Shown here: in pieces, positions 6,854-19,935 of the stretch | How positions within the stretch are numbered: position 1 is the stretch's first letter | Layout of the letters: each line of letters begins with the position of its first letter | NCBI GenBank assembly: GCA_016201875.1 | Contig: JACQBY010000028.1 | Location: 1-37,764, forward strand | From: Nitrospirota bacterium | GTDB lineage: Bacteria; Nitrospirota; Nitrospiria; JACQBW01 | Direction: 5' to 3' | Length of the DNA stretch: 37,764 nt | The notes under the pieces: model-generated | What the model was told of the DNA's origin: nothing | What the model saw: the letters and a program-made list of their open reading frames with translations, nothing else | Databases searched by the model: none | Made by a program: the position numbers and the translations under genes

Positions 6854-9046
6854 TTAATTTCCCCCTCTAACCCTTTTAACCTGAACAACGCTCTCCAATT
6901 TCTCAATATTTTTAAAAACCCTTTCTAAATGCTGGAGATCTTTTATTTCAATGATAAAGATAAGCGTCGCTTTTTTATTCTCGGCCGAGGTGGTGATTTC
7001 AGCATGGCTGATATTGGCTTCCGATGAGGAAATCGCCTGAGAAACGCTCGCCAGAATGCCTGGTTTATCTACCGTCACCACGGAAATCTTCACAGGATAG
7101 GTTGAATCTGTCCGGGTTTCCCAATCGACATCGACGATTCTTTCTTTATCATAATCGAGCTCGTCGATGTTGGGGCATTCTACGGAATGGATCGATAAGC
7201 CTCTCCCTCGCGTGATGAATCCGATAATGGGGTCTCCGGGAACGGGATTGCAGCACTTGGAAATATGAGTCAGAATATCATGCATCCCCGTGACTTTGAC
7301 CCCCTCTTTTTCCATTCCCGGCTTTTTAGCCGGTTTATCTTTTACGCCCTCTTTTAAAGGTTCTTGCGGGAGAAGTTTTTGAATGACCTGATGGGGGGAA
7401 ATCTTGCCGTAACCCAATAAAACCCACAATTCTTCCACAGATAAAACGCCCAGTTCCTTTAAAATCGTTTGGAAATGCTCGCTCTTCAGAGGAGCGGAAG
7501 GATTGAGATGGTTTCTTCTGAACTCTTTTTCGAGAAGTTTTTTTCCGATTTCAAGGCTTCTCTTTCTCTCTTCAACGGAAATCCAATGTTTAATTTTTGT
7601 TTTTGCCCGGGGAGTTTTGACCCATTTCAACCAATCTTTATTGGGGTACTGCGTGGGGGAAGAGAGGATTTGCACCATATCCCCGTTTCTCAGTTCATAC
7701 CGGAGCGGAACGATCTTGCCATTTACTTTTGCCCCGGTACAGTGGTCGCCGATTTCAGTATGAATACTATAAGCAAAGTCGATGGGGGTCGACCCTTTGA
7801 CCAATTCCTTGACGGCGCCTTTGGGAGAAAAAACATAAACCACCTCGGCAAATAAATCCATTTTCACCGAGTTCATAAACTGCCGGTTGTCTGAAAGGTC
7901 CCTCTGCCATTCAACCAGTTGACGCAACCAGGCGAATACAGCGTCGTTCTTCTCGTCAAAACTCCCTTTTTCCTTGTATTTCCAGTGCGCCGCGATACCT
8001 TCCTCGGCGGTTTGATGCATTTCGGCAGTTCTAATCTGAAATTCAACCCGTTCCCCGCCCGGCCCGATGACCGTCGTATGGAGGGACTGGTAGAGGTTCG
8101 ATTTCGGAACGCCGATATAATCTTTAAACCGCCCCGGAACCGGTTTCCAGAGAGAATGAATCAGCCCCAGAATGGCATAGCAATTGAATTTCGTATCGGT
8201 AATAATCCGGATCGCCGCAAGATCAAATACTTCCTCAAAGGAGATGCCGTTTTTTTCCATTTTCTGGTAAATACTGAAGATATGTTTAGAGCGTCCGGTG
8301 ACGTCTGCGGTAAAATGATTTTCTTTAAGGTTCTTATTGATGATGTCGACGACTTCTTTGATATAGGCTTCACGGTCTTCTTTTTTCCTGGCTATTTTTT
8401 TGACCAGGCCGAAATAAACCTCATGCTTCAGGTAGCGGAGACAGAGGTCTTCAAGCTCCGCTTTCATCCAGCCGATCCCGAGCCGGTTGGCCAGCGGGGC
8501 GTAGATTTCGAGGGTTTCTCTTGCAATCCGCTTTTGTTTGTCTTCGGGGAGATATTCCAGCGTCCTCATATTATGGAGCCGGTCCGCAAGTTTGATCAGA
8601 ATAACCCGAATGTCTTTGGACATCGACAGAAGCATTTTTCTAAAGTTTTCGGCCTGCTTCTCTTCGGCGCTGGTAAACTTTATTTTCCCTATTTTAGTCA
8701 CCCCTTCGACGAGATAGGCGACGGTTCCGCCAAACTCGCGGACAACTTCTTCCTGGGTCAAAGAGGTGTCTTCCACCGTATCGTGAAGCAAACCGGCTGC
8801 AATCGACGGGACATCAAGCCTCAGATGGGTCAGAATAAGAGCCACTTCAAGGGGATGTTCCACATAAGGGTTACCCGATTTACGGATTTGATCTCCGTGA
8901 GCCTGCAACGACTTTTCGTAGGCCTTTCGAATTAAAGAGACCTCTGCGGCGGGATTGTACTCCAAAACCTTTTCCAGGATATCTTCGATATGGACGCTTG
9001 CTCTTAACATAGAGTTCTGCTCTGGCATAAGATAAGGGCTGATCAA
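6854..9046 (-). CDS. relA: Bifunctional (p)ppGpp synthetase/hydrolase (RelA/SpoT homologue)
   Basis: 730-aa ORF. HD hydrolase motifs (EHPLEVA, LHDTVEDT), synthetase region (GRSKHIFSIYQKM, DLAAIRII, EFQIRT), a TGS-like region and a C-terminal ACT-like domain. The true start may be Met13 (9010). Confidence 0.95.
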   Translation of the reverse strand: MISPYLMPEQNSMLRASVHIEDILEKVLEYNPAAEVSLIRKAYEKSLQAHGDQIRKSGNPYVEHPLEVALILTHLRLDVPSIAAGLLHDTVEDTSLTQEEVVREFGGTVAYLVEGVTKIGKIKFTSAEEKQAENFRKMLLSMSKDIRVILIKLADRLHNMRTLEYLPEDKQKRIARETLEIYAPLANRLGIGWMKAELEDLCLRYLKHEVYFGLVKKIARKKEDREAYIKEVVDIINKNLKENHFTADVTGRSKHIFSIYQKMEKNGISFEEVFDLAAIRIITDTKFNCYAILGLIHSLWKPVPGRFKDYIGVPKSNLYQSLHTTVIGPGGERVEFQIRTAEMHQTAEEGIAAHWKYKEKGSFDEKNDAVFAWLRQLVEWQRDLSDNRQFMNSVKMDLFAEVVYVFSPKGAVKELVKGSTPIDFAYSIHTEIGDHCTGAKVNGKIVPLRYELRNGDMVQILSSPTQYPNKDWLKWVKTPRAKTKIKHWISVEERKRSLEIGKKLLEKEFRRNHLNPSAPLKSEHFQTILKELGVLSVEELWVLLGYGKISPHQVIQKLLPQEPLKEGVKDKPAKKPGMEKEGVKVTGMHDILTHISKCCNPVPGDPIIGFITRGRGLSIHSVECPNIDELDYDKERIVDVDWETRTDSTYPVKISVVTVDKPGILASVSQAISSSEANISHAEITTSAENKKATLIFIIEIKDLQHLERVFKNIEKLESVVQVKRVRGGN

Positions 9047-9115
9047 AACAATCGCATGGGTAACGCGGCAGTCAGAATATTTATTAAAATTATAACATCT
9101 TTAAAAGGTAAAAGG

Positions 9116-10273
9116 CTACCGCTCTGGATGCCGCCTGTCATGCTTTAACGGATCCAGGGGGAGATGAAGGGTAAAGGTGGTTCCTTTAGACAACAGGGAT
9201 TTGACGTCGATCGAACCGCGATGCTGATCAATGAATTGATGGCAGGCCATGAGTCCCAGGCCGGTTCCCTCCTGCCGGGTCGTAAAAAAGGGATTAAACA
9301 ATTTTTGAAGGTTTTCTTCCGAGATGCCGCAGCCGGTATCGGAGATCATAATCTGCACCAGCCTGTCGCTAAACTTTTCCGTTGTGATCGTAATCGTTCC
9401 TTCCCCGGTCGCCTGAATCGCATTTAAAATCAAATTAATCACCACCTGTTTGATTTTCTCGGAATCCAGAATAACAGGAGGAATCTCCCTGGACAGATGG
9501 GTCAGAATGGAAAGGTTTTTCTTTGCCGCTTCTTTCTCCAGAAGCGAGACGGTCTCCTTGATCAGAAGGTTCAAATCAGCTCCGGCGAGAGATAATTTAG
9601 AATCTCCCGTGTTTTTTGAATAGGAAAGCAACTCTGAAATAATCTGCCGGATTCTAACAACATCCTTGCAGGCCACCTGATGGAACCTTTTCCAAAAATC
9701 GGGATCTTCCTCTGTTTTCTTTTGGGGGGCCATTTCCAAAAAGGTCTGAATCGCAACAAGAGGGTTATTAATTTCATGAGCCATCCCCGCCGCCAGAATC
9801 CCTATCGCCCCCAGCCGGTTCGTTCTCGCCATCTTTTGCATGGTCTTGATTTTCTCGGAATAAAGCCGGTCTCTTTCCTGAATCAAAAAGTATCTCTCTA
9901 TTCCACTCCTGAGATATTGCTTTAGTTGAAGCGGTTCATAAGGCTTTTCGACGCATTGATAAATCTGCCCGAAATTGACCGCATCCATCAGGGTTTTCAA
10001 ATCGATAAAGGCAGTCATCAGCATTCTGACTATATCAGGCCTTTTTTCCGCGACTTTTTGAAGAAGTTCAACGCCTGTCATCCCCGGCATTCTTTGATCC
10101 GTTAAAACCAGTGCGATTTCGGGATGATGCTCGATTAACTCAAGGGCTTCTTCTCCCTTTCCGGCAGTCAAAACAGTCAATTCTGTTCCAAAATACCTTT
10201 GAAAAACTTCAAGTCCGACTTCTTCATCGTCAACGTATAGTATGGAGTACTTCCTGTAATTCAGGTCTTTCAT
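9116..10273 (-). CDS. Receiver-histidine kinase hybrid (REC-HisKA-HATPase)
   Basis: N-terminal REC (ILYVDDE...LVLTDQRMPGMTG...K), H-box GMAHEINNPL, N box INLILNAIQA, G boxes SDTGCGI and GTGLGL. Confidence 0.9.
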   Translation of the reverse strand: MKDLNYRKYSILYVDDEEVGLEVFQRYFGTELTVLTAGKGEEALELIEHHPEIALVLTDQRMPGMTGVELLQKVAEKRPDIVRMLMTAFIDLKTLMDAVNFGQIYQCVEKPYEPLQLKQYLRSGIERYFLIQERDRLYSEKIKTMQKMARTNRLGAIGILAAGMAHEINNPLVAIQTFLEMAPQKKTEEDPDFWKRFHQVACKDVVRIRQIISELLSYSKNTGDSKLSLAGADLNLLIKETVSLLEKEAAKKNLSILTHLSREIPPVILDSEKIKQVVINLILNAIQATGEGTITITTEKFSDRLVQIMISDTGCGISEENLQKLFNPFFTTRQEGTGLGLMACHQFIDQHRGSIDVKSLLSKGTTFTLHLPLDPLKHDRRHPER

Positions 10274-10300
10274 TCGGCTCCAGAGCTAAATAAAATAGGG

Positions 10301-13300
10301 TTAACGAGTCTGTTGAACAGGATGTTCTTTCGGAATAAATCCAGGATTGGACCGGGTGGCCGGAAGCGAAACAATCATTTCCGTTCCTTCATTTTCTATG
10401 CTTTTGACGGTAATCGAACCATGATGCGCCTGAATCACCTGGTAGGCCAGAAAAAGCCCCAAACCCATCCCCTCCCCAACATTCCTTAAGGTAAAAAACG
10501 GTTCAAATAAATGTTCCAGCTTTTCTTTTTTAATTCCCCGGCCATTATCCTTAATTGAAACCCAGACTCTATCTTCACCATCGTTCCAGGTTTTGATCCA
10601 GATTAAACCTCGTTCTCCGACTGCTCTTACAGCGTTATCAAGAACCACTTCAAACAACTGGCTTAATAAAAGAGGCATTCCTTCGATTTCTCTATTCAAA
10701 TGATAATCTTTAAAAAAAGTAATCCTCTCTTTTGGAAAAGAGGGATTCATCTCTTCGAGCCGGGCGACGGACCGTTCAATTAAACGGGTCAGGGAAAGCC
10801 TTTCAAAGTGAAGGGCCCGGCTGCCATCAAAAACTTTAAGCCGGTTAACGACCTCCTGAATCCGGTCGATCCCTTTTTTAACGATTTCAAGCGCCGGTCC
10901 GGCCGTTTTGATCAAACCGGTCAATTCCTCCCTGTGGCTTGTTATTTCTGAAGAATCCCCGATCGCCTTAAACCGTTCAAAAGCTTCAGAAATGATCTCC
11001 CAGGATGTCCGGGTAAAACTCACGGGATTATTGATCTCATGAACCACTCCTGCAACCATCACCGCCATGGCCGCCATTTTCTGGGAGTGGGCGCTCTCCT
11101 TTTCAAGCTCCTTTAACTTCAGGAGGGACCTGACCCTCGCGGTTAATTCTTCCATATTAAACGGTTTGGTTAAATATTCATCCGCGCCATGTTCAAAACC
11201 TTCAATTTTGTTTGAGGCCTCTGATTTTGCCGTCAGAAGAATGACCGGAATATGGCCGGTTCTTTTATCGGCTTTCACTTCTCTGCAAAGCTGATAACCA
11301 TCTTTTAAAGGCATCATGACATCCGAAATGATAAGATCCGGCATATAGGCTCTGGCCGACTGAACCCCCTCGACCCCGTTCTTTGCCATTAATACGGAAT
11401 ACTCTTTTCTAAGAATGGAACAAATGAAGTTTTGCATCTGTAGATCATCTTCTGCAATCAGGATCTGATACTGCTTCTTTTTTCCGCTTTCGGGTTTTTC
11501 TTCTCCCTGTTCCGGTTTTATCCAGTCCGAAGATTGATAAAGGGCGCTGACAGAAAGGGATTTCGTTAAATCTTCACTCCTCCGCTTTAGATTTGTTTCG
11601 AACTCCACTTCTCTCCGGTCTTTATGGTCTTCAACATCTTCAATTTCCATCACCAAAGGAAGAGTGAAAATAAAAACCGATCCTTTATCCAATTCGCTCT
11701 CTACCCAGATTTTCCCCTGATGCATTTCAACAAATTCTTTGCAAAGGGCCAGCCCGAGGCCGGACCCCTGGTATTTCCGGCTTGAAGAGCTGTCTACCTG
11801 AGTAAACCGTTCAAAGATCTTTTCCAGATAAGAGGCCGGCACTCCGATTCCGGTATCCCGGACTCTGGCTTCTATCAACCCCCCTTTTACCTCCAGGGAA
11901 ATCCAGATAGATCCTTCGGAACCGGTAAATTTCAGCGCATTTGAAATCAGATTGATCAATACCCGTTCAATTTTTTCCCTGTCAAAATAAAATTCAGGAA
12001 TTTCGGATTCTGCCGAATAAGTCAATCGGATATTGCGTTTATCCGCCATTAAAGAGAGCGAAGAAACAATCCCCTGGACAATCAGGTTCAGATCATATTT
12101 ATTTTTAAACACCGCCATCTTGCCCGCATCGGTTTTTGCCAGATCCAGAAGGCCGTTGATCAGGTTCAACAGGCGGAGTCCGTTTGCCCGGACGGCTGTT
12201 AAACTCTTTTTCATTTCAGGAGATACAGCGCCATATTCATTATTTAAGATCATTTCAAGAGGAAGCAAAATAAGGGTTAATGGCGTTCGAAGCTCATGGT
12301 TCACATTGGCAAAAAACTCGGTCTTCAGCCGGTCCAGTTCTTTTAATTTGGCATAAGACTCTTCCAGTTCTTTTTTACTTTCAGCTAATTCCCGGGTACG
12401 TTCTTCTACCTTATTTTCAAGCTCTTGACCCCATGTTTTTAATTCCTGTGACATTTTATTGACATCGTCATAAAGAAGAGAATTACTTAGCGCAATAGAA
12501 GCCTCAGTTCTTAAATTGGAAAGGAAGTCAATATCCATTTTTGAAAAAGGCTTGAGGTTATCCTTTTCTCCCAAATTAATGATACCAATCAAGTTTCCGT
12601 CGTGAATCAAAGGGATGGCGACTTTCGCATTAAATTTCTGGAAATAGGATCGAGCCAGGGAACGAACGTTTTCAAATTGAGGATTAAATTCAACCTCCTC
12701 CCGCTCAATCACACTATCGTGTTCTTTCATACAGGCCAGACAGGGATCATTCAAGCTTAGAATCTCATCTGTTCCAACCACTTTATAATTCTGGTTTTTA
12801 TCGCTCCAAAGAATTAACGTTATTTTAGAAACATAAAGCGCTTCTTTGATGGTCGCCGCAATTTTTTCTATTAACCTGTCCAGATTTTTTAATGCGGCAA
12901 GTTCTTTTACCATCCCTTGAAGAATCTTCTGCATATCATATTTGCGCCGTTGAAAAAGGTGATCTATTCGAGGCTGAATAAATTTAACATAAGGTATTAA
13001 TAAAACTGTTACCGCCCATACATACAGAGAAAGCTGAACAGGTGTTAAACGGCTAATCCAAAGATGACCGATATAAAATATTCCGGCAATCGGAAATAAG
13101 ATGAGGGATGAGATTCCTACCCACATTAATGTTTTATGAATTACTGTCGATATGTCCATGAATTTATATCTAATGATGGCATAGCCTGTTATGAAAAAGT
13201 AAAGAGGTACGATAAAAACACCATATGGATAGAATTTAATACCAAAAGTTGGAATAAAGGTGGTAGAGCCACCTGTATAAGTAATTAACCATGACAATGC

Positions 13301-13813
13301 CACATATAAAATCATCGGTTTTGAAGTATTTGAAGAAGCCTGAAATGCTATCTTAAGCTGGTAAAGAGTAAATATAACCATGCTGAAGAAGAATAAGGAA
13401 AAGGGAAACATGAGGTATCCTGCTTCAGTATAGTAATTGAAGTCCAGGATCGGTCTAACACCTTTGAGAAAAAGATTCCCAAAAATATCAAAAGGGACAA
13501 GCAATGATGCAAATATGTAAGCTGTCTTAAGAAAGGTTTTATTTAGCTTTTCTCTGCCAACGAAAGCCAAGGTTGCTTGGCAATGCACAACAGATATATA
13601 AATTGCAGGTAAAAAGAGTGCCTTCCCCCAAAATAATGCATCAATTTCTCGAGAACTTTTCAGCATCATTCCAAAGCTAAAACTCCATAAGGCGAATATA
13701 ATGGTGGAAAAAAGATAAAGTCTATTTACCCTATTTTTGTGATCTTTCAGAAAAACGAAAAGCCCTAGCACTAAACTTAAAAGAGTGTTTGTAAATAAGA
13801 ATATTTTGATCAA
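10301..13813 (-). CDS. Multidomain sensor kinase: 7TM (HisKA_7TM-like) - GAF - HisKA/HATPase - REC - second HisKA/HATPase
   Basis: 1170-aa ORF. About 7 hydrophobic helices in aa 1-285, ending in RYKFMDI. GAF-like segment (aa ~300-450) and a coiled coil. H-box NVNHELRTPL (His506) with G boxes DTGIGV and GSGLGL. REC (ILIAEDD...LIISDVMMPLKDG...LTAK). Second H-box VVHEINNPV with DNGRGI and GMGLGL. Confidence 0.9.
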   Translation of the reverse strand: MIKIFLFTNTLLSLVLGLFVFLKDHKNRVNRLYLFSTIIFALWSFSFGMMLKSSREIDALFWGKALFLPAIYISVVHCQATLAFVGREKLNKTFLKTAYIFASLLVPFDIFGNLFLKGVRPILDFNYYTEAGYLMFPFSLFFFSMVIFTLYQLKIAFQASSNTSKPMILYVALSWLITYTGGSTTFIPTFGIKFYPYGVFIVPLYFFITGYAIIRYKFMDISTVIHKTLMWVGISSLILFPIAGIFYIGHLWISRLTPVQLSLYVWAVTVLLIPYVKFIQPRIDHLFQRRKYDMQKILQGMVKELAALKNLDRLIEKIAATIKEALYVSKITLILWSDKNQNYKVVGTDEILSLNDPCLACMKEHDSVIEREEVEFNPQFENVRSLARSYFQKFNAKVAIPLIHDGNLIGIINLGEKDNLKPFSKMDIDFLSNLRTEASIALSNSLLYDDVNKMSQELKTWGQELENKVEERTRELAESKKELEESYAKLKELDRLKTEFFANVNHELRTPLTLILLPLEMILNNEYGAVSPEMKKSLTAVRANGLRLLNLINGLLDLAKTDAGKMAVFKNKYDLNLIVQGIVSSLSLMADKRNIRLTYSAESEIPEFYFDREKIERVLINLISNALKFTGSEGSIWISLEVKGGLIEARVRDTGIGVPASYLEKIFERFTQVDSSSSRKYQGSGLGLALCKEFVEMHQGKIWVESELDKGSVFIFTLPLVMEIEDVEDHKDRREVEFETNLKRRSEDLTKSLSVSALYQSSDWIKPEQGEEKPESGKKKQYQILIAEDDLQMQNFICSILRKEYSVLMAKNGVEGVQSARAYMPDLIISDVMMPLKDGYQLCREVKADKRTGHIPVILLTAKSEASNKIEGFEHGADEYLTKPFNMEELTARVRSLLKLKELEKESAHSQKMAAMAVMVAGVVHEINNPVSFTRTSWEIISEAFERFKAIGDSSEITSHREELTGLIKTAGPALEIVKKGIDRIQEVVNRLKVFDGSRALHFERLSLTRLIERSVARLEEMNPSFPKERITFFKDYHLNREIEGMPLLLSQLFEVVLDNAVRAVGERGLIWIKTWNDGEDRVWVSIKDNGRGIKKEKLEHLFEPFFTLRNVGEGMGLGLFLAYQVIQAHHGSITVKSIENEGTEMIVSLPATRSNPGFIPKEHPVQQTR

Positions 13814-13829
13814 GAAAAGATCCTCTTAA

Positions 13830-15626
13830 TTAATTTGTAAGATTGAATCTCTCACCTATATCTTTAAATACAGTTAAAGCAATATCAAGATCTTCAATTG
13901 AATTTGTTGCAATAGGAGCAAGTCGAAGTCTAGCTTCTCCTCGTTTAACAGCGGGTCTGCCAATTGCTCCAACGAAAACACCCCTCTCCTGCATGGCCCC
14001 AGCAACTTGATGCGCAAGTGCCTCGTCTCCAATTATGACTGGAATGATTTGTGTCGTACTTGTCCCTAGATTAAAACCCATTTTTAAAAGCCCACTTCGA
14101 AGATATTTTATATTGAACCAAAGCTTTGGAATTAACTCCTTATCAGATTCTAGAACATCTAAAGCAGCGAGCACGGTAGCGCAAATTACAGGGGTAAGAC
14201 TTGTTGTAAAAAGCGACATCATAGAAAAGTATCTTAAATAATTTATTGTTTCCTTGCTACCTGCCACATATCCTCCAATACTCGCAAGCGCCTTTCCAAA
14301 GGAGTCTGTCACAATATCTACTTGTCCTTCGATCTGAAAATGGCTAAGACTTCCCTTTCCATTTACACCTAGAACGCCAGAACCAAATACATCATCAACT
14401 AAAAGAACCGCATTATATCTTTTAGCTAATTTGCAAATTTCACTCAGATTCGCAAGATCTCCATCCATACTGAACACACTATCCGTTATAATAATTTTTT
14501 TATAAATTGCATACACATTTAACAGCTTTTCAAGGTGTTCCATATCATTGTGTCTATAAACTCTTACTCGCGATTTCGAGGCTCTACATCCTTCAAAGAG
14601 ACTTATGTGATTCTTTGCATCATTTAGAAGAACAAAATCTTCTCTAAAAAGAGTCGATATTGCTCCTACATTCGCCATAAAACCCGTACTAAATAGAATT
14701 GCATCTTCCATTGATTTAAACTTTGCCAGCCGTTCTTCTAACCTTTTATGAAGATCAAAAGTTCCTCCTAAAACATTGGGACTTCCCGCTCCTGTTCCAT
14801 ATTTCTCAATCGCCTTAATTGCCGCTTCTTTCACCCTAGGATCTGAAGCAAGACCTAAATGATCATTAGAAGAAAGCATAATTAACTTCTTGCCCTTTAA
14901 GGTAATTCTTGGACCACACCCAGAATCAACGACTCTAGCGTAGGTATGTCTCTCTGCCCATTTATGTAAAGTTTCGTTTGTTCTCTTAATGGAATCATGA
15001 AAACTCTCATTTTGAGTCAATAAATTCACATCTCTTAATTCACCAGTGTCTTCAATAGCTTTATAGTTCCCCATGCTAGGTTTCTCATGAATTCGAGATG
15101 ACTGATCGAGAAGATTTATATCCTTTTCGGTCAGAGGTTCTTTAGAAAATAGAATATTCAATAAAGATTGTTTTTGTATTATAGAACTCTGCTTGAATTC
15201 CTGAATTGCAAAGCTTAATATTTTTTGTTCCCAATCCTTATCCTTAATTTCAGAAAACTTAAGTCTTATTGCATTTTCTCGAGAAGAGATAACAACTGCT
15301 GCAATTTTGATATTGCAGGCCTGTGCAAAGTTAAATCTAAGCGACAGAGCCGTACCAGCGTTTAAATTAACATCGCAAAATACTAGAAGACCGTTAGGAC
15401 TAATGTCGTGGGTATAGCCAAAAATTTCTTTCTTATCTAGCCGCAAGCAAACGGGGATTTTGAACTGCTCCCGCTCATAATTGCGGATTTGCTCCGCAAG
15501 GCGCCTTCTTTCGTTAGAGATTGCTGTTTCATTTTGCCGTTGCTCGGCCATCCTTCTCTCTTTCAAATTAATAGGTAAAGTCTGCTTTCTTCTTTCATAA
15601 AATATTGTGTTTTCAGATAACATCAT
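13830..15626 (-). CDS. PilZ domain fused to an alpha-oxoamine synthase family PLP enzyme (BioF/KBL/SPT/CqsA family)
   Basis: 598-aa ORF. PilZ signatures R48-NYE-R52 (RxxxR) and D74-ISPNG79 (DxSxxG). The C-terminal ~375 aa carry SSNDHLGL, NHISLFEG, SVFSMDGD, VDDVFGSG and DSFGK445 (PLP lysine). The start could also be Met26 (15551). Confidence 0.8.
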   Translation of the reverse strand: MMLSENTIFYERRKQTLPINLKERRMAEQRQNETAISNERRRLAEQIRNYEREQFKIPVCLRLDKKEIFGYTHDISPNGLLVFCDVNLNAGTALSLRFNFAQACNIKIAAVVISSRENAIRLKFSEIKDKDWEQKILSFAIQEFKQSSIIQKQSLLNILFSKEPLTEKDINLLDQSSRIHEKPSMGNYKAIEDTGELRDVNLLTQNESFHDSIKRTNETLHKWAERHTYARVVDSGCGPRITLKGKKLIMLSSNDHLGLASDPRVKEAAIKAIEKYGTGAGSPNVLGGTFDLHKRLEERLAKFKSMEDAILFSTGFMANVGAISTLFREDFVLLNDAKNHISLFEGCRASKSRVRVYRHNDMEHLEKLLNVYAIYKKIIITDSVFSMDGDLANLSEICKLAKRYNAVLLVDDVFGSGVLGVNGKGSLSHFQIEGQVDIVTDSFGKALASIGGYVAGSKETINYLRYFSMMSLFTTSLTPVICATVLAALDVLESDKELIPKLWFNIKYLRSGLLKMGFNLGTSTTQIIPVIIGDEALAHQVAGAMQERGVFVGAIGRPAVKRGEARLRLAPIATNSIEDLDIALTVFKDIGERFNLTN

Positions 15627-15674
15627 GCACCTCCCTCTGGGATTAAGAAAATATAACTAGGAATTTTATTTAAA

Positions 15675-15899
15675 CTAATACAAACGTATTAATTTGTGAG
15701 ACCCCTCTCCCTCCCCCTCAAGGGGGGAGGTTTGGAGAGGGAGAACATCGGATGTAGACACTGCCATGCCTTTATTGCTAATATCAAAAGCCTCCCCTTT
15801 GTATATTATTGGTTTTTTTGTTTCGGGATCTCTAAGCTGTATGAATACCTCTAATAAATGTTTTACACGATGAGTTTCTCGGCGATCTGATTTAACCAT
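15675..15899 (-). CDS. Short PilZ-domain ORF, probably C-terminally truncated
   Basis: 74-aa ORF with RRETHR (RxxxR) and DISNKG (DxSxxG). Only 33 aa follow the second motif, and the last ~20 codons are encoded by a G/C palindromic element. Confidence 0.5.
   Translation of the reverse strand: MVKSDRRETHRVKHLLEVFIQLRDPETKKPIIYKGEAFDISNKGMAVSTSDVLPLQTSPLEGEGEGSHKLIRLY
15702..15743. repeat. Imperfect G/C-rich palindrome (REP-like hairpin)
   Basis: ccctctccctccccc-tcaa-ggggggagg-tttg-gagaggg. The inner stem is cctccccc/gggggagg and the outer stem is ctctc/gagag with a bulge. It lies inside the 3' end of the short PilZ ORF. It occurs once in this window. Confidence 0.55.
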
Positions 15900-16274
15900 T
15901 TATCTTTCTACCTCTCTATAAATAATAATAAACAATAGCTTATATTTTAATTTCGGGGGGGAATTAGAAATACATTGATAGAATAAAATCGAAAGGAATT
16001 TGCTAGGGTGAATATCATACAATGTTAGATGCTTCTCCCTTATTTGATGAGAAACTAACAGCTCTTTATCGCACTCATAAAATGAACCTGATTCTTTTAG
16101 AGAATATCAAAAATCGTTGATTTGTCAATTGAAAGTATGATTAAGGGTGTTTTTATTTTTTTCAATTTCTGTCTGATCTGGCTAAATGGAGTGAGGCCAA
16201 AGCAACGGAACTTGGCTATTTTTATATTTATCTTAAATTAAGACTTTATCACAAACGACAGGAATGATGACCCT

Positions 16275-18242
16275 ATGAATATTCTCGATGTTCAACAGCT
16301 TAGCAAAAAATATGCAATAAAACCAGTTCTCGATCAGGCCGCCTTTACCATCGGAGAGGATGAAAAGGTCGGGTTTATCGGTCTTAACGGCAGCGGAAAA
16401 TCAACTCTTTTCAGAATTATCGCCTCTCTGGAAAGCTCGGATGGGGGGGTCATCTCGATAAAGCGGGGATCCACCATAGGCTATTTGCCTCAGGACCCCG
16501 TTATCAACCCCGTCCATACGATCAAAGAAGAACTGCTCACCGCCTTTCACAAACTCCGCCCCGCTCTCGAACGCTTTGAAGAAATCAGCCATCTTCTTCA
16601 TGATGCCGCGGATAAAAATAAAAAAGCCCTCCTCGATGAACACTCGAAGCTCTCCCATCAAATCTCCGAGCAGGGAGGATGGAATCTCGATCACAAACTG
16701 GAAGAGGTTCTGAGCCATCTTTCGATCAAGGGTTCAGATAGAAACGAAACGGGTCTCGATGAATTAATGGGGAACTTATCCGGAGGGATGAAGAAAAGGG
16801 TCGCCATTGCCAAGCTCGTTTTAGAGTCTCCTTCTCTCCTCCTGCTGGATGAACCGACCAACCATCTCGATGCGGATACCGTGCAATGGCTGGAGGATTT
16901 TCTGATCGGGTATCACGGAGCGGTCATGCTGATTACCCACGACCGGTATTTTCTCGACCGGGTGGTCAGCCGGATCATTGAAATCGACAGGGGAAAACTC
17001 TACCCCTTTCCCGGGAACTATACTGAATATCTGGTGAGGAAAGCAGACCTCCTCAATCATGAGAACAAGTCCCAGAGCAGGCTCATCACGCTTCTGCGGA
17101 ATGAAACGGCCTGGATAACGAGAGGCGCCCGGGCGCGCGGCACCAAATCCAAATCACGGATCGAGCGGTATGGAACGCTTCAGAGCCAGGTGAAAGGCCC
17201 TTCGTCCCTTTCCCTTCAGTTTGACTTTAAAACAGAATCCCGTCTCGGCGATATTATTCTTGAACTGCAATATCTGAGTAAATCTTTTGGGTCAAGATCT
17301 CTTTTTAAAAACCTTCTCTTTTCCATGAAAAAGGGAGACCGGATCGGGATTATCGGCCGGAACGGTTCGGGAAAAACAACCCTCCTCAAGATCATCCTCA
17401 AAGAGGAGTTCCCCTCATCGGGGAGCATCGTTCTGGGCAACAAAACAAAAATCGCCTATTTTGATCAGCATCGGGAGAGCCTTGACCCGAACCAGCGGGT
17501 GGAAGAAGCGCTCGGAGAAGGACTCTGGCTTAAAATTGGCGAAGAAACCCGCTTAAAGTCCTCGTATCTGGAATCTTTTCTCTTTTCCCATTCAGAGCAA
17601 AAAAAAATCATCCGCACCCTGTCCGGAGGGGAAAAAGCCCGGTTGAGCCTGGCGAAATTGATGCTGGAAAATGCGAACTTTCTCCTTTTGGACGAACCGA
17701 CAAACGACCTTGATATTCCGAGCCTTCAGCTTTTAGATGAAGCGCTCATTCAATTTGCCGGCTGTGTCCTGATGGTTACCCATGACCGCTATTTTCTGGA
17801 TAAGGTCGCCACCGGCATACTGAGTTTCGAACAGGACGGGACCACCCATTATATTCAGGGGAATTACCGGGACTACTTAAACTGGAAAAGAGGAAAAACC
17901 CTCTCGGGGAAAAACACCCCAAAACAGGAAGAGACTGCTATGTCACCCTCTTCTCCTAAAAAGGGACAGAAAAAATTAAGTTTCAAAGAAGAACGGGAAC
18001 TGGAAACGCTGGAAAAAGAAATCGGAACCCTGGAGGAAAGAAAAACCGAGATCGAAAAAGCGATGGGGAATCCCGTCTTTCTGGATCGCGAGGCCGTCAA
18101 CCAGCTGGGGACAGAATTCAAAAGAATTGAGTCAGACCTTCTTGAGAGAGTCAACCGTTGGGAAGCTCTTGAAACTAAAAAAGCGAGCTTTCAAACCCAG
18201 GGAGGGAACCCCCTGAGTGTTGAAAACCCGCTCTCTTTTTAA
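16275..18242 (+). CDS. ABC-F family ATPase (Uup/EttA-like, no membrane domain)
   Basis: 655-aa ORF with two cassettes. Walker A GLNGSGKST and GRNGSGKTT, signatures LSGGMKKR and LSGGEKAR, Walker B LLLLDEP and FLLLDEP, and a Lys/Glu-rich coiled-coil C-terminus. Confidence 0.92.
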   Translation: MNILDVQQLSKKYAIKPVLDQAAFTIGEDEKVGFIGLNGSGKSTLFRIIASLESSDGGVISIKRGSTIGYLPQDPVINPVHTIKEELLTAFHKLRPALERFEEISHLLHDAADKNKKALLDEHSKLSHQISEQGGWNLDHKLEEVLSHLSIKGSDRNETGLDELMGNLSGGMKKRVAIAKLVLESPSLLLLDEPTNHLDADTVQWLEDFLIGYHGAVMLITHDRYFLDRVVSRIIEIDRGKLYPFPGNYTEYLVRKADLLNHENKSQSRLITLLRNETAWITRGARARGTKSKSRIERYGTLQSQVKGPSSLSLQFDFKTESRLGDIILELQYLSKSFGSRSLFKNLLFSMKKGDRIGIIGRNGSGKTTLLKIILKEEFPSSGSIVLGNKTKIAYFDQHRESLDPNQRVEEALGEGLWLKIGEETRLKSSYLESFLFSHSEQKKIIRTLSGGEKARLSLAKLMLENANFLLLDEPTNDLDIPSLQLLDEALIQFAGCVLMVTHDRYFLDKVATGILSFEQDGTTHYIQGNYRDYLNWKRGKTLSGKNTPKQEETAMSPSSPKKGQKKLSFKEERELETLEKEIGTLEERKTEIEKAMGNPVFLDREAVNQLGTEFKRIESDLLERVNRWEALETKKASFQTQGGNPLSVENPLSF

Positions 18243-18243
18243 T

Positions 18244-19935
18244 CTATCCGGTGGTGGCTCCGGTAGCCGCTGACGAAACCAGTCTGGCATATTTCGCCAT
18301 AACCCCCTGTTTGTAGCGGGGAGCAGGAGACTGCCAGCTCTTTAGCCGTTTTGCCATTTCTTCTTCGGACAGTTCTACGTTTAATTCACGTTTGGCTATA
18401 TCAAAAACCACGATATCCCCGTCCCTCAAGGCGGCAATCGGTCCGCCGCGCGCGGCTTCCGGGGCAACATGCCCGACCATCAGACCGCGGGTGGCTCCGG
18501 AAAATCGCCCGTCGGTCAACAGGGCAACCGAATCCCCCATTCCGGCGCCGACAAGGGCGCTGGTCACTCCAAGCATCTCCCTCATTCCGGGTCCGCCGAC
18601 AGGACCTTCGTACCGGATCGCAACCACATCCCCCGATTGGATCACCCCTTTTTGAACAGCCTGAAAAGCGTCTTCTTCCCGGTCAAACACCCGGACGGTA
18701 CCGCGATGATACATTCTTTCATGGCCGGCCAGTTTCACCACCGACCCTTCGGGGGCAAGATTCCCTTTTAAGATCACCAACCCCCCGCTTTTTTTAATCG
18801 GGTTAGAAAGAGGGTGAACGACTTTTTGCCCCGGCGTCTCCCGGACCTGACGGACCTCCTCGCCGATCGTTCTTCCGGTGACGGTCATTTCATCTGCGTG
18901 GAGAAATCCCCCTTCCAGAAGCCTTTGTCCGACCAGAGGGATTCCCCCCGCCTCATAAAGGTCGGTTGCCACGAAATGGCCCCCCGGTTTCAGGTCGACC
19001 AGCATCGGCGTGCGCGAACTAATCTCTTCAAAATCGTCAATTTTCAAGGGAATCCCCGCTTCCTTTGCGATGGCGAGCAGATGAAGGACTCCGTTGGTCG
19101 AACCGCCTGTGGTGGCAATCGCCAGAATCGCATTTTCAATAGAACGGCGGGTCACAATCTGAGCGGGACGAAGTCCGCTTTTTACCATCGCCATGACCAT
19201 CTCCCCCGCTTTAAACGCCTCTTCGTCCTTTTTCGGGTCCATGGCAGGAACACCGTTGCTTCCGGCAGGCGAAAGGCCCATGATCTCTATGGCCGTAGCC
19301 ATGGTATTTGCCGTGAACTGGCCTCCGCAGGCTCCGGCGCCGGGACAGGCGGAATTTTCAATCTCGTCCAACTCTTTTTCGCTGATTTTTCCTTTTCCAA
19401 ACGCCCCTACTGCTTCAAACACATCCTGAATTGTAATATCCTTATCATGATACTGTCCCGGCATAATCGATCCGCCGTAAAGCATTAATGATGGGATATT
19501 CATCCGGATCATCGCCATGACCGTTCCGGGAATTGTTTTATCACAGCCTGAAAGGGTAACAAGGCCATCAAACATATTTCCCCTTGCCACCAGCTCGATA
19601 GAATCGGCAATCACTTCACGGCTGATCAGAGAGGTTTTCATCCCCTCCGTTCCCATCGTGATGCCATCCGAAATGGTCACGGTGTTAAATTCCATAGGGG
19701 TCCCCCCTGCGGCCCGGACTCCCTCTTTCACCTTTTCCGCAAGCCTCCGGAGGTGATAGTTACAGGGGCCGATCTCCGTCCAGGTATTGGCAATGCCGAT
19801 GATGGGACGTTCGAGGTCTTTCCCTGTAAATCCGACCGATTTTAACATTGCCCGCGAAGGGGCGCGGTTGGCTCCTTCGAGAAGAACCCTGCTATTCTGA
19901 TTCGCTCTGGTCATGTTCCCGCTCTCTTTCGTCAA
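18244..19935 (-). CDS. ilvD: Dihydroxy-acid dehydratase
   Basis: 563-aa ORF with ILVD/EDD family motifs: GIANTWTEIGPCN, SGCDKTIPG, SLMLYGGS, LLTDGRFSGAT. The start may be Met8 (19914). Confidence 0.95.
   Translation of the reverse strand: MTKESGNMTRANQNSRVLLEGANRAPSRAMLKSVGFTGKDLERPIIGIANTWTEIGPCNYHLRRLAEKVKEGVRAAGGTPMEFNTVTISDGITMGTEGMKTSLISREVIADSIELVARGNMFDGLVTLSGCDKTIPGTVMAMIRMNIPSLMLYGGSIMPGQYHDKDITIQDVFEAVGAFGKGKISEKELDEIENSACPGAGACGGQFTANTMATAIEIMGLSPAGSNGVPAMDPKKDEEAFKAGEMVMAMVKSGLRPAQIVTRRSIENAILAIATTGGSTNGVLHLLAIAKEAGIPLKIDDFEEISSRTPMLVDLKPGGHFVATDLYEAGGIPLVGQRLLEGGFLHADEMTVTGRTIGEEVRQVRETPGQKVVHPLSNPIKKSGGLVILKGNLAPEGSVVKLAGHERMYHRGTVRVFDREEDAFQAVQKGVIQSGDVVAIRYEGPVGGPGMREMLGVTSALVGAGMGDSVALLTDGRFSGATRGLMVGHVAPEAARGGPIAALRDGDIVVFDIAKRELNVELSEEEMAKRLKSWQSPAPRYKQGVMAKYARLVSSAATGATTG

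Follow-up and report, generated by a model that had tools for sequence, protein, structure and literature searches.

A PilZ domain fused to an alpha-oxoamine synthase and paired with a 7TM-GAF sensor: a candidate c-di-GMP-gated signalling module in Nitrospirota

Enzymes of the alpha-oxoamine synthase (AOS) family use pyridoxal 5'-phosphate (PLP) to condense an amino acid with an acyl-thioester to an alpha-aminoketone, and in the CqsA/CqsS system of Vibrio the gene of such an enzyme lies next to that of a polytopic sensor kinase with a receiver domain, the signal being a lipophilic, aminoketone-derived molecule. In the cellulose synthase BcsA and in Alg44/Alg8, on the other hand, cyclic diguanylate (c-di-GMP) switches catalysis through a PilZ domain. 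The first arrangement is shared by the second system of alpha-hydroxyketone quorum sensing, LqsA/LqsS, in which the PLP-dependent autoinducer synthase is likewise clustered with a membrane kinase with a receiver (PMC5289986), while in the second a biosynthetic enzyme has a canonical PilZ domain as a fused part or as a partner (10.1101/814665). Here we describe a locus that combines the two. It lies in the 37,764-nucleotide contig JACQBY010000028.1 of a Nitrospirota bacterium (assembly GCA_016201875.1), which is referred to below as the window, and it consists of a gene for a PilZ domain fused to an AOS, followed on the same strand by a gene for a hybrid histidine kinase with a HisKA_7TM-GAF sensor. 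Our preferred reading, to which we would assign a probability of roughly 0.4, is that c-di-GMP gates the synthesis of a lipophilic aminoketone, which is then detected by the paired sensor.

By analogy, this module resembles CqsA/CqsS and LqsA/LqsS functionally, but its enzyme and its receptor belong to other lineages, and a c-di-GMP input is predicted in addition. Namely, the window's AOS is not an orthologue of CqsA or LqsA: it scores 223.5 with the CqsA/LqsA-type model NF005526, under the equivalog cut-off of 428, and in a phmmer search of the PDB it gives 138 bits with the CqsA structures 2wk8/3hqt, which rank below Kbl, BioF, serine palmitoyltransferase (SPT) and ALAS, as compared with 290 bits for the best match, the promiscuous synthase ThAOS of Thermus thermophilus. 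The receptor is of the HisKA_7TM-GAF type, for which searches of Pfam and NCBIfam detect no relation to CqsS. Finally, CqsA and LqsA, unlike the window protein, have neither a PilZ domain nor any other input for a second messenger. As for BcsA, a membrane glycosyltransferase, the difference lies in the output, in this case a soluble condensing enzyme of Claisen type that depends on PLP, and in the placement of the PilZ domain, which in the window protein is N-terminal and sits on a long disordered linker, unlike in BcsA-type PilZ enzymes.

The presence of a PilZ domain had been proposed in the initial annotation from motifs alone, and a profile search bears it out: Pfam PF07238 matches residues 46-139 with 48.4 bits, against a gathering cut-off of 22.5 (E 1.2e-12; positions 1-99 of the 102 in the profile). 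An AlphaFold2 (AF2) model of the full-length protein, with a mean predicted local distance difference test score (pLDDT) of 74, places strands at residues 58-63, 66-76, 79-84, 93-100, 104-116 and 119-124 and a C-terminal helix at 132-146/148-153. In this model, the PilZ part of the fusion has the canonical topology of the domain, a beta-barrel of six strands with a long alpha-helix after it (10.1101/814665). Both c-di-GMP motifs, RNYER and DISPNG, stand exactly at the residues first given for them (Table 1), and the second agrees with its published definition, [D/N]hSxxG with a hydrophobic residue at h (10.1101/814665). Moreover, R48, R52 and G79 are invariant across 15 aligned fusion proteins. 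In one respect the domain layout has to be corrected. Namely, the linker had been put at about 90 residues, while the unstructured stretch amounts to about 55, since the PilZ domain with its helix reaches to about residue 153 and the AOS domain begins at about residue 209, with pLDDT below 50 at 162-207. The gene encodes a single polypeptide, in which a PilZ domain of canonical type, its c-di-GMP-binding signature intact, is joined through a disordered, arginine-rich linker to the N-terminus of an AOS resembling BioF, Kbl and SPT. Repeats of the form [D/E/N/Q]-R-R, two to five per protein, occur in 14 of the 15 fusion proteins; the window protein has three in its N-terminal extension, at residues 11, 23 and 39. 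They precede the PilZ domain in P0001-P0008 and lie within the PilZ-AOS linker in P0012, P0018, P0022, P0025, P0032, P0056 and P0069 (P numbers denote individual proteins and, below, L numbers individual loci). The arginine content of the repeat-bearing regions is 8-15%, as opposed to 2-6% in the AOS domain.

The C-terminal part of the protein, which is well modelled by AF2, belongs to the AOS family. Pfam Aminotran_1_2 matches residues 247-585 with 174.6 bits, and the NCBIfam models of BioF/Kbl type (subfamily, Kbl, BioF and SPT) cover residues from about 211-220 to 595 with E-values of about 1e-116 to 1e-108. The best of them, the BioF/Kbl subfamily model TIGR01825 (E 5.8e-116), gives 387.3 against a cut-off of 535.4, and the equivalog cut-offs are missed by Kbl NF005394 (378.7, cut-off 460), BioF TIGR00858 (364.2, cut-off 426.45), SPT NF047600 (363.2, E 1.3e-108, cut-off 640) and ALAS TIGR01821 (269.5, cut-off 338.55). 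ThAOS (7poa/8s1y; 38% identity) is the closest match in both sequence and fold, with a Foldseek template modelling (TM) score of 0.90 to 7poa (E 2.6e-41), followed in structure by the Sphingobacterium SPT and Kbl; in sequence, the S. multivorum SPT 3a2b comes second with 285 bits. ThAOS shares with the window protein the PLP fold, the lysine, the stacking histidine and the aspartate, and differs from it in having no N-terminal domain and in having a histidine where the window protein has Phe414. This last point qualifies the earlier description of a complete fold-type-I PLP condensing-enzyme domain. The fold itself stands, as do the Schiff-base Lys445, found precisely at the end of DSFGK where it had been placed, and the PLP-stacking His340 and Asp411 (to the pyridine nitrogen), both of which match catalytic residues of 7poa and do not vary among the 120 homologues closest to the window protein; Arg568 is likewise invariant among the aligned homologues. 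What does not stand is that the domain is fully canonical, Phe414 having taken the place of a conserved histidine. The equivalent residue of SpSPT, His234 of the D-x-x-H motif, hydrogen-bonds the PLP hydroxyl (PMC6148460). Among the same 120 homologues, position 414 is His in 115, Phe in P0001-P0004 only and Gln in P0006, and the histidine is kept in 34 of 37 cluster representatives from the family search described below.

The PilZ motifs lie inside the translated protein, because the GGAGG site and its ATG codons are located upstream of them and because homologues align from about residue 5. In particular, GGAGG is 3 nt from the first of two tandem ATG codons (15626) and 6 nt from the second (15623), and the alignments of P0002, P0003 and P0006 to the fusion protein begin at about residue 5 with 99% coverage. 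A true start downstream of the motifs, which had been named as the circumstance that would remove the domain, is therefore contradicted by the upstream ATG with its ribosome-binding site and by the conservation of the whole N-terminus in homologues. An internal start at Met195 ('PMG', conserved in P0001-4), which would give a PilZ-less isoform, was considered and ruled out, no Shine-Dalgarno-like sequence being found upstream of it. In the region preceding the gene (15550-16350), searches for riboswitches and other known RNAs gave matches at chance level only; between 13500 and 16400, promoter-like sites numbered 14, somewhat above the 8.1 ± 3.5 of shuffled controls, and terminator-like sites were as many as the shuffled controls lead one to expect. 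The exact protein is present in GenBank as MBI1819407.1 / MBI3604726.1, from a Nitrospirota metagenome-assembled genome, and bears no label more specific than PLP enzyme of the class I/II aminotransferase fold.

Is the fusion an isolated occurrence? A search of 1.84 billion representatives of 50%-identity clusters with a family profile says otherwise. Among the best 150 matches, which were inspected, about 36 proteins are long and N-terminally extended, and Pfam PilZ and Aminotran_1_2 are both present in 31 of the 37 representatives scanned; the fusion thus recurs in no fewer than 31 of the 50%-identity clusters. RxxxR is conserved in 32 of the 37, and in [DN]xSxxG the D/N is kept in 33, the S in 30 and the G in 34. 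The motifs have persisted while the PilZ regions around them diverged, identity to the window's region being as low as 14-45% in the 14 other fusion proteins aligned, and their conservation therefore reads as a signature of selection for ligand binding. The AOS domain, in turn, is 65-67% identical within the subclade of the window protein (P0002, P0003), which is far above the conservation of PilZ or linker. A relative of 468 residues, P0004 (66% identity over the matched part), has kept the arginine-rich N-terminus and the linker and lacks the PilZ barrel; judging from its sequence, this would be a variant from which PilZ has been deleted naturally. A search with a profile of the N-terminus alone gave two matches at the database-wide E-value and did not enlarge the family, and it uncovered, at a further locus (L017, 162-2048, + strand), a paralogue of 307 residues in which a PilZ-plus-linker N-terminus, 42% identical to the window's, is joined to an acyl carrier protein (ACP) domain. 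Scanning genome contigs with universal AOS motif patterns returned, among the matches listed, generic Kbl/BioF loci and no fusion. In the full-text literature searched, neither a PilZ-PLP enzyme nor a PilZ-AOS fusion is described, and a review of the PilZ domain names none (10.1101/814665); matches joining 'Pilz' with serine palmitoyltransferase do not concern the PilZ domain or any such fusion. The suggestion that a PLP enzyme would be a new class of output for PilZ is consistent with this. PilZ effector fusions and pairs of AOS synthase and membrane kinase are each known separately, and the literature found is consistent with their combination here not having been described.

PilZ-AOS and the 7TM-GAF sensor form a conserved, tightly spaced and co-inherited module. 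In the window, the hybrid kinase gene (10301-13813) begins 16 nt past the AOS stop codon, and a HisKA_7TM-GAF sensor is found downstream on the same strand also in L001, L002/3, L006, L007/8, L009, L010/11, L012, L013 and L098, with a gap of about 0-30 nt in nine cases and of about 250-340 nt in one. Applying profiles built for this analysis to every locus retrieved, we found such a neighbour for 10 of 12 distinct PilZ-AOS genes, as compared with 1 of 161 AOS genes without PilZ, the latter being generic Kbl/BioF loci from the contig scan (Fisher p 1.4e-13, a value to be read in the light of the phylogenetic non-independence of the 12 loci). What is more, the identities of AOS and sensor co-vary (Mantel r 0.85, p 2e-4), and the sensor regions are collinear over 425 aa even in distant pairs (21% identity). 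Pfam HisKA_7TM matches the sensor with 25.8 bits in the window and with 39-70 bits in relatives. In most cases the sensor has a histidine kinase as its output; the one HD-GYP domain is that of L007 (GCA_028712365.1, JAQTQE010000016.1): at 8438-10384 (+), 24 nt downstream of the PilZ-AOS gene, we find HisKA_7TM-GAF-HD-GYP, in which HD_5 scores 125 bits and the HHHERFDGRGYP motif is intact. As judged from these motifs, the HD-GYP output would tie the module to c-di-GMP turnover. The deposited call of this sensor gene starts too late and omits the 7TM part. A different variant is seen in L082 (4590-11826, +), where two REC proteins and a 171-aa protein of unknown type precede an AOS without PilZ, followed, 8 nt downstream, by 7TM-DUF835, a PAS-histidine kinase and a sigma54 response regulator. 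Because in this case an AOS devoid of PilZ sits in a signalling operon, the pairing of AOS and sensor appears from the gene orders to be the core and PilZ an added input. The nearest stand-alone AOS, from Hippea (L016), has no such sensor or kinase neighbour.

Table 1. Features of the PilZ-AOS locus in window coordinates, with the basis of each assignment.
Feature	Positions	Strand	Basis or remark
PilZ-AOS fusion gene	13830..15626	(-)	598 aa open reading frame (ORF)
GGAGG ribosome-binding site	15630..15634	(-)	sequence reading
N-terminal extension, aa 1-45	15492..15626	(-)	predicted disordered (AF2: about aa 1-47)
PilZ domain, aa 46-153	15168..15491	(-)	Pfam; AF2 pLDDT 67-83
c-di-GMP motif 1, RxxxR = RNYER, aa 48-52	15471..15485	(-)	sequence
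c-di-GMP motif 2, [D/N]hSxxG = DISPNG, aa 74-79, h = Ile	15390..15407	(-)	sequence
Inter-domain linker, aa 154-208	15003..15167	(-)	low confidence/disordered in AF2
Alpha-oxoamine synthase domain, aa 209-598, with stop codon	13830..15002	(-)	Pfam, NCBIfam, phmmer, Foldseek
Phe414 at the position of the PLP-O3' histidine	14385..14387	(-)	SpSPT His234 equivalent; VDDVFGSG vs VDDAHGSG
Schiff-base Lys445	14292..14294	(-)	aligned to catalytic Lys of 7poa/3a2b; K in 120/120 closest homologues
Polytopic sensor part of the hybrid kinase, aa 1-275, similar to HisKA_7TM; some 8 hydrophobic segments	12989..13813	(-)	kinase downstream of AOS
Rest of hybrid kinase: GAF, HisKA, HATPase, REC, second HisKA-like/HATPase module	10301..12988	(-)	Pfam
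REC-HisKA-HATPase kinase, third module gene	9116..10273	(-)	also in L001
ORF of 74 aa, probable PilZ remnant	15675..15899	(-)	N-terminal half only of PilZ: RRETHR, DISNKG

How could these parts work together? In the circuit that we favour, c-di-GMP would bind the PilZ domain and allosterically switch the synthase, a plausible route being that the PilZ barrel changes its position on the AOS dimer, against an N-terminal helix that contributes to the entrance for the acyl-thioester. The product would be a lipophilic molecule of the aminoketone type, and the co-transcribed 7TM-GAF sensor would detect it in the membrane. In this way, an intracellular second messenger would gate the release of a signal, which in turn would feed a phosphorelay, and in a relative of the L007 type the c-di-GMP phosphodiesterase output would close a feedback loop. 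A lipophilic product is suggested, firstly, because L006, L009 and L098 have, beside the AOS-sensor pair, a gene for an outer-membrane channel of the FadL/TodX type, which takes hydrophobic compounds; secondly, because P0137 carries a START/polyketide-cyclase-like lipid-binding insert ahead of its AOS domain and other relatives have a third domain, namely GNAT in P0142 and P0174 (the P0142 cluster includes OGE23100.1 of Candidatus Dadabacteria) and a FemAB-like one in P0136 and P0215; and thirdly, because in L017 a thioester reductase gene (NAD_binding_4) lies 10 nt downstream of the PilZ-ACP gene and the sensor itself has about eight hydrophobic segments. A link of the module with c-di-GMP is suggested because of the HD-GYP output of L007 and the c-di-GMP-I riboswitch in the window (see below), and a signalling context of the AOS even without PilZ because of the L082 operon.

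That said, several points weigh against this circuit. Synteny is evidence of co-inheritance and not of a relation between ligand and receptor, and a loop for membrane-lipid homeostasis would give an identical pattern. The binding of c-di-GMP and of PLP, the substrate, the product and the ligand of the sensor are all predictions. Moreover, the AOS domain is nearer to Kbl, BioF and SPT than to CqsA by both of the comparisons given above, the window's first PilZ motif has the form xRxxxR, whereas most relatives have RRxxxR, and P0025 and P0056 have no downstream sensor; the non-independence of the 12 loci belongs here as well. When searched against NCBIfam, the isolated 7TM regions match no characterised receptor family, with weak similarity to PrsK and LIC10906 in relatives. 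Finally, Phe414 may mean that catalysis in the window's own subclade is altered or weak.

Would the pattern be any different if the product were a structural lipid and not a signal? This is the main rival explanation, on the whole an unlikely one: c-di-GMP would control the synthesis of a membrane lipid, such that a long-chain base, a sphingoid-like or an N-acyl-aminoketone lipid remodels the envelope in the biofilm state, while the 7TM-GAF kinase monitors the membrane in the manner of DesK. A precedent exists in Bacillus subtilis, where the gene of a lipid-modifying enzyme, the desaturase Des, lies beside that of DesK, a polytopic membrane histidine kinase; the enzyme class and the sensor family are different, there is no c-di-GMP input, and the parallel is a precedent for membrane homeostasis only. 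The idea gains from SPT being among the best matches of the AOS (285 bits; TM 0.90; NF047600 E 1.3e-108) and from much of the evidence for a lipophilic product, which serves it equally: the FadL neighbours at three loci, the START-like insert of P0137, the PilZ-ACP paralogue with its thioester reductase, and the C-terminal GNAT or FemAB-like N-acyltransferase domains of some family members, of which the GNAT fusions recall the bacterial pairing of Spt with a ceramide synthase of GNAT type. However, the SPT equivalog cut-off is missed by a wide interval (363 vs 640), no sphingolipid-pathway genes occur in the window, and no gene for an ACP, acyl-ACP synthetase, ketoreductase or N-acyltransferase adjoins the window gene or its closest relatives; to our knowledge, no SPT has a PilZ domain. 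The HD-GYP output of L007 and the multi-component operon of L082 also fit signalling better than lipid supply.

Two lesser rivals deal with the activity of the enzyme itself. According to the first, the AOS of the window's subclade is catalytically impaired, and the protein is an adaptor that binds c-di-GMP, and possibly PLP or an amino acid, and modulates the kinase by protein contact. Confinement of H414F to P0001-P0004 is what one would expect of such a pseudoenzyme, the non-catalytic SPT1 subunit is likewise without this residue set (PMC6148460), the Schiff-base lysine has been lost in two other cluster representatives (Gly in P0135, Ala in P0168), and the kinase gene is only 16 nt away. 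Against this stand the retention of Lys445, the stacking His340, Asp411 and Arg566/568, the histidine present in 34 of 37 family members and the 65-67% identity of the AOS domains of P0002 and P0003, which exceeds that of PilZ and linker and suggests selection on the enzyme, and we regard an adaptor as decidedly improbable. The second, that this is an ordinary Kbl (threonine/glycine) or BioF (biotin) enzyme with a PilZ-like extension devoid of c-di-GMP function and with a kinase neighbour by coincidence, would agree with the BioF/Kbl subfamily, Kbl and BioF being the best NCBIfam models and with the annotation of relatives in GenBank and IMG as glycine C-acetyltransferase or 8-amino-7-oxononanoate synthase, but it is very hard to reconcile with the failure to reach any equivalog cut-off (Kbl 379/460, BioF 364/426), the lack of adjacent tdh or bio genes in the window, the family-wide conservation of the c-di-GMP motifs, the sensor adjacency of 10/12 vs 1/161, the stand-alone Hippea AOS without a kinase neighbour and the atypically low G+C content at third codon positions (GC3) of the fusion gene.

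The composition of the locus is indeed unusual. The fusion gene has a G+C content of 0.373 and a GC3 of 0.285, while GC3 is 0.50-0.63 in infB, nusA, relA/spoT, ilvD and an ABC-F gene, so that the gene is AT-richer than the flanking core genes, as the initial annotation had concluded from hand counts of 23/60 (14041-14100) and 43/60 (18421-18480), both of which are exact. Along 10301-15626 (-), GC3 follows a gradient, from 0.26-0.29 in the AOS through 0.33 in the 7TM region to 0.47 at the 3' end of the kinase gene, so that the low values cover the AOS gene and the 5' (7TM/GAF) part of the kinase gene. A similar AT bias marks the PilZ-AOS genes of L007 and L098 and is absent in L001; it is compatible with a lateral spread of the module, and no proof of it.

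Independent support for the use of c-di-GMP by this organism comes from a c-di-GMP-I riboswitch (RF01051) predicted at 37197-37279 (-), which scores 42.6 bits where the gathering cut-off is 35. It lies directly upstream of an ORF at 36098-37102 (334 aa, with the Rhs/YD-type 'RYYDPGIGRFLSVDP' core motif), after which come a pair of short ORFs for membrane proteins and a YD-repeat protein of 1400 aa (31259-35461), and the position of the riboswitch points to c-di-GMP-controlled expression of this Rhs/YD cluster. A motif scan of the window found no GGDEF, EAL or HD-GYP proteins.

Two further features border the module. Upstream of the fusion gene, the 74-aa ORF at 15675-15899 matches Pfam PilZ with 21.8 bits, slightly below the cut-off, and the family profile with 21.7 bits over positions 2-52, and it is probably the remnant of a truncated PilZ gene. 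It continues into a perfect G/C hairpin at 15710-15730, CCTCCCCCCTTGAGGGGGAGG; this hairpin was considered as a repeated element, and a second copy is absent from the window. At the other end, a gene of the RelA/SpoT family of (p)ppGpp synthetases/hydrolases (6854-9046, -) lies 70 nt past the REC-kinase gene on the same strand, which is not so in L001. In this genome, the c-di-GMP-linked module and the (p)ppGpp enzyme may for this reason share a transcript.

What would these findings mean? Known effectors of c-di-GMP act mainly on polysaccharide synthases, flagellar motors, secretion/pilus ATPases, transcription factors and riboswitches. If our reading is true, the post-translational control exerted by c-di-GMP would extend to the biosynthesis of small molecules or lipids. 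The pairing suggests a circuit of synthase and receptor in which emission depends on the state of a second messenger, and we found no protein-level description of one that runs in this direction. A bolder proposal, which we put forward as doubtful, is that PilZ-AOS and 7TM-GAF constitute an unrecognised family of cell-cell (or cell-envelope) signalling systems of uncultured bacteria, among them Nitrospirota and Dadabacteria, in which c-di-GMP would directly gate an autoinducer synthase and the output would be either a phosphorelay or the degradation of c-di-GMP. The H414F replacement, for its part, is a natural experiment on a residue that is considered conserved in AOS enzymes. At least 31 clusters of proteins that now go by 'aminotransferase', 'glycine C-acetyltransferase' or 'hypothetical' would receive a more specific annotation, and, if the bolder proposal is true, the second-messenger state would be hard-wired to intercellular signalling.

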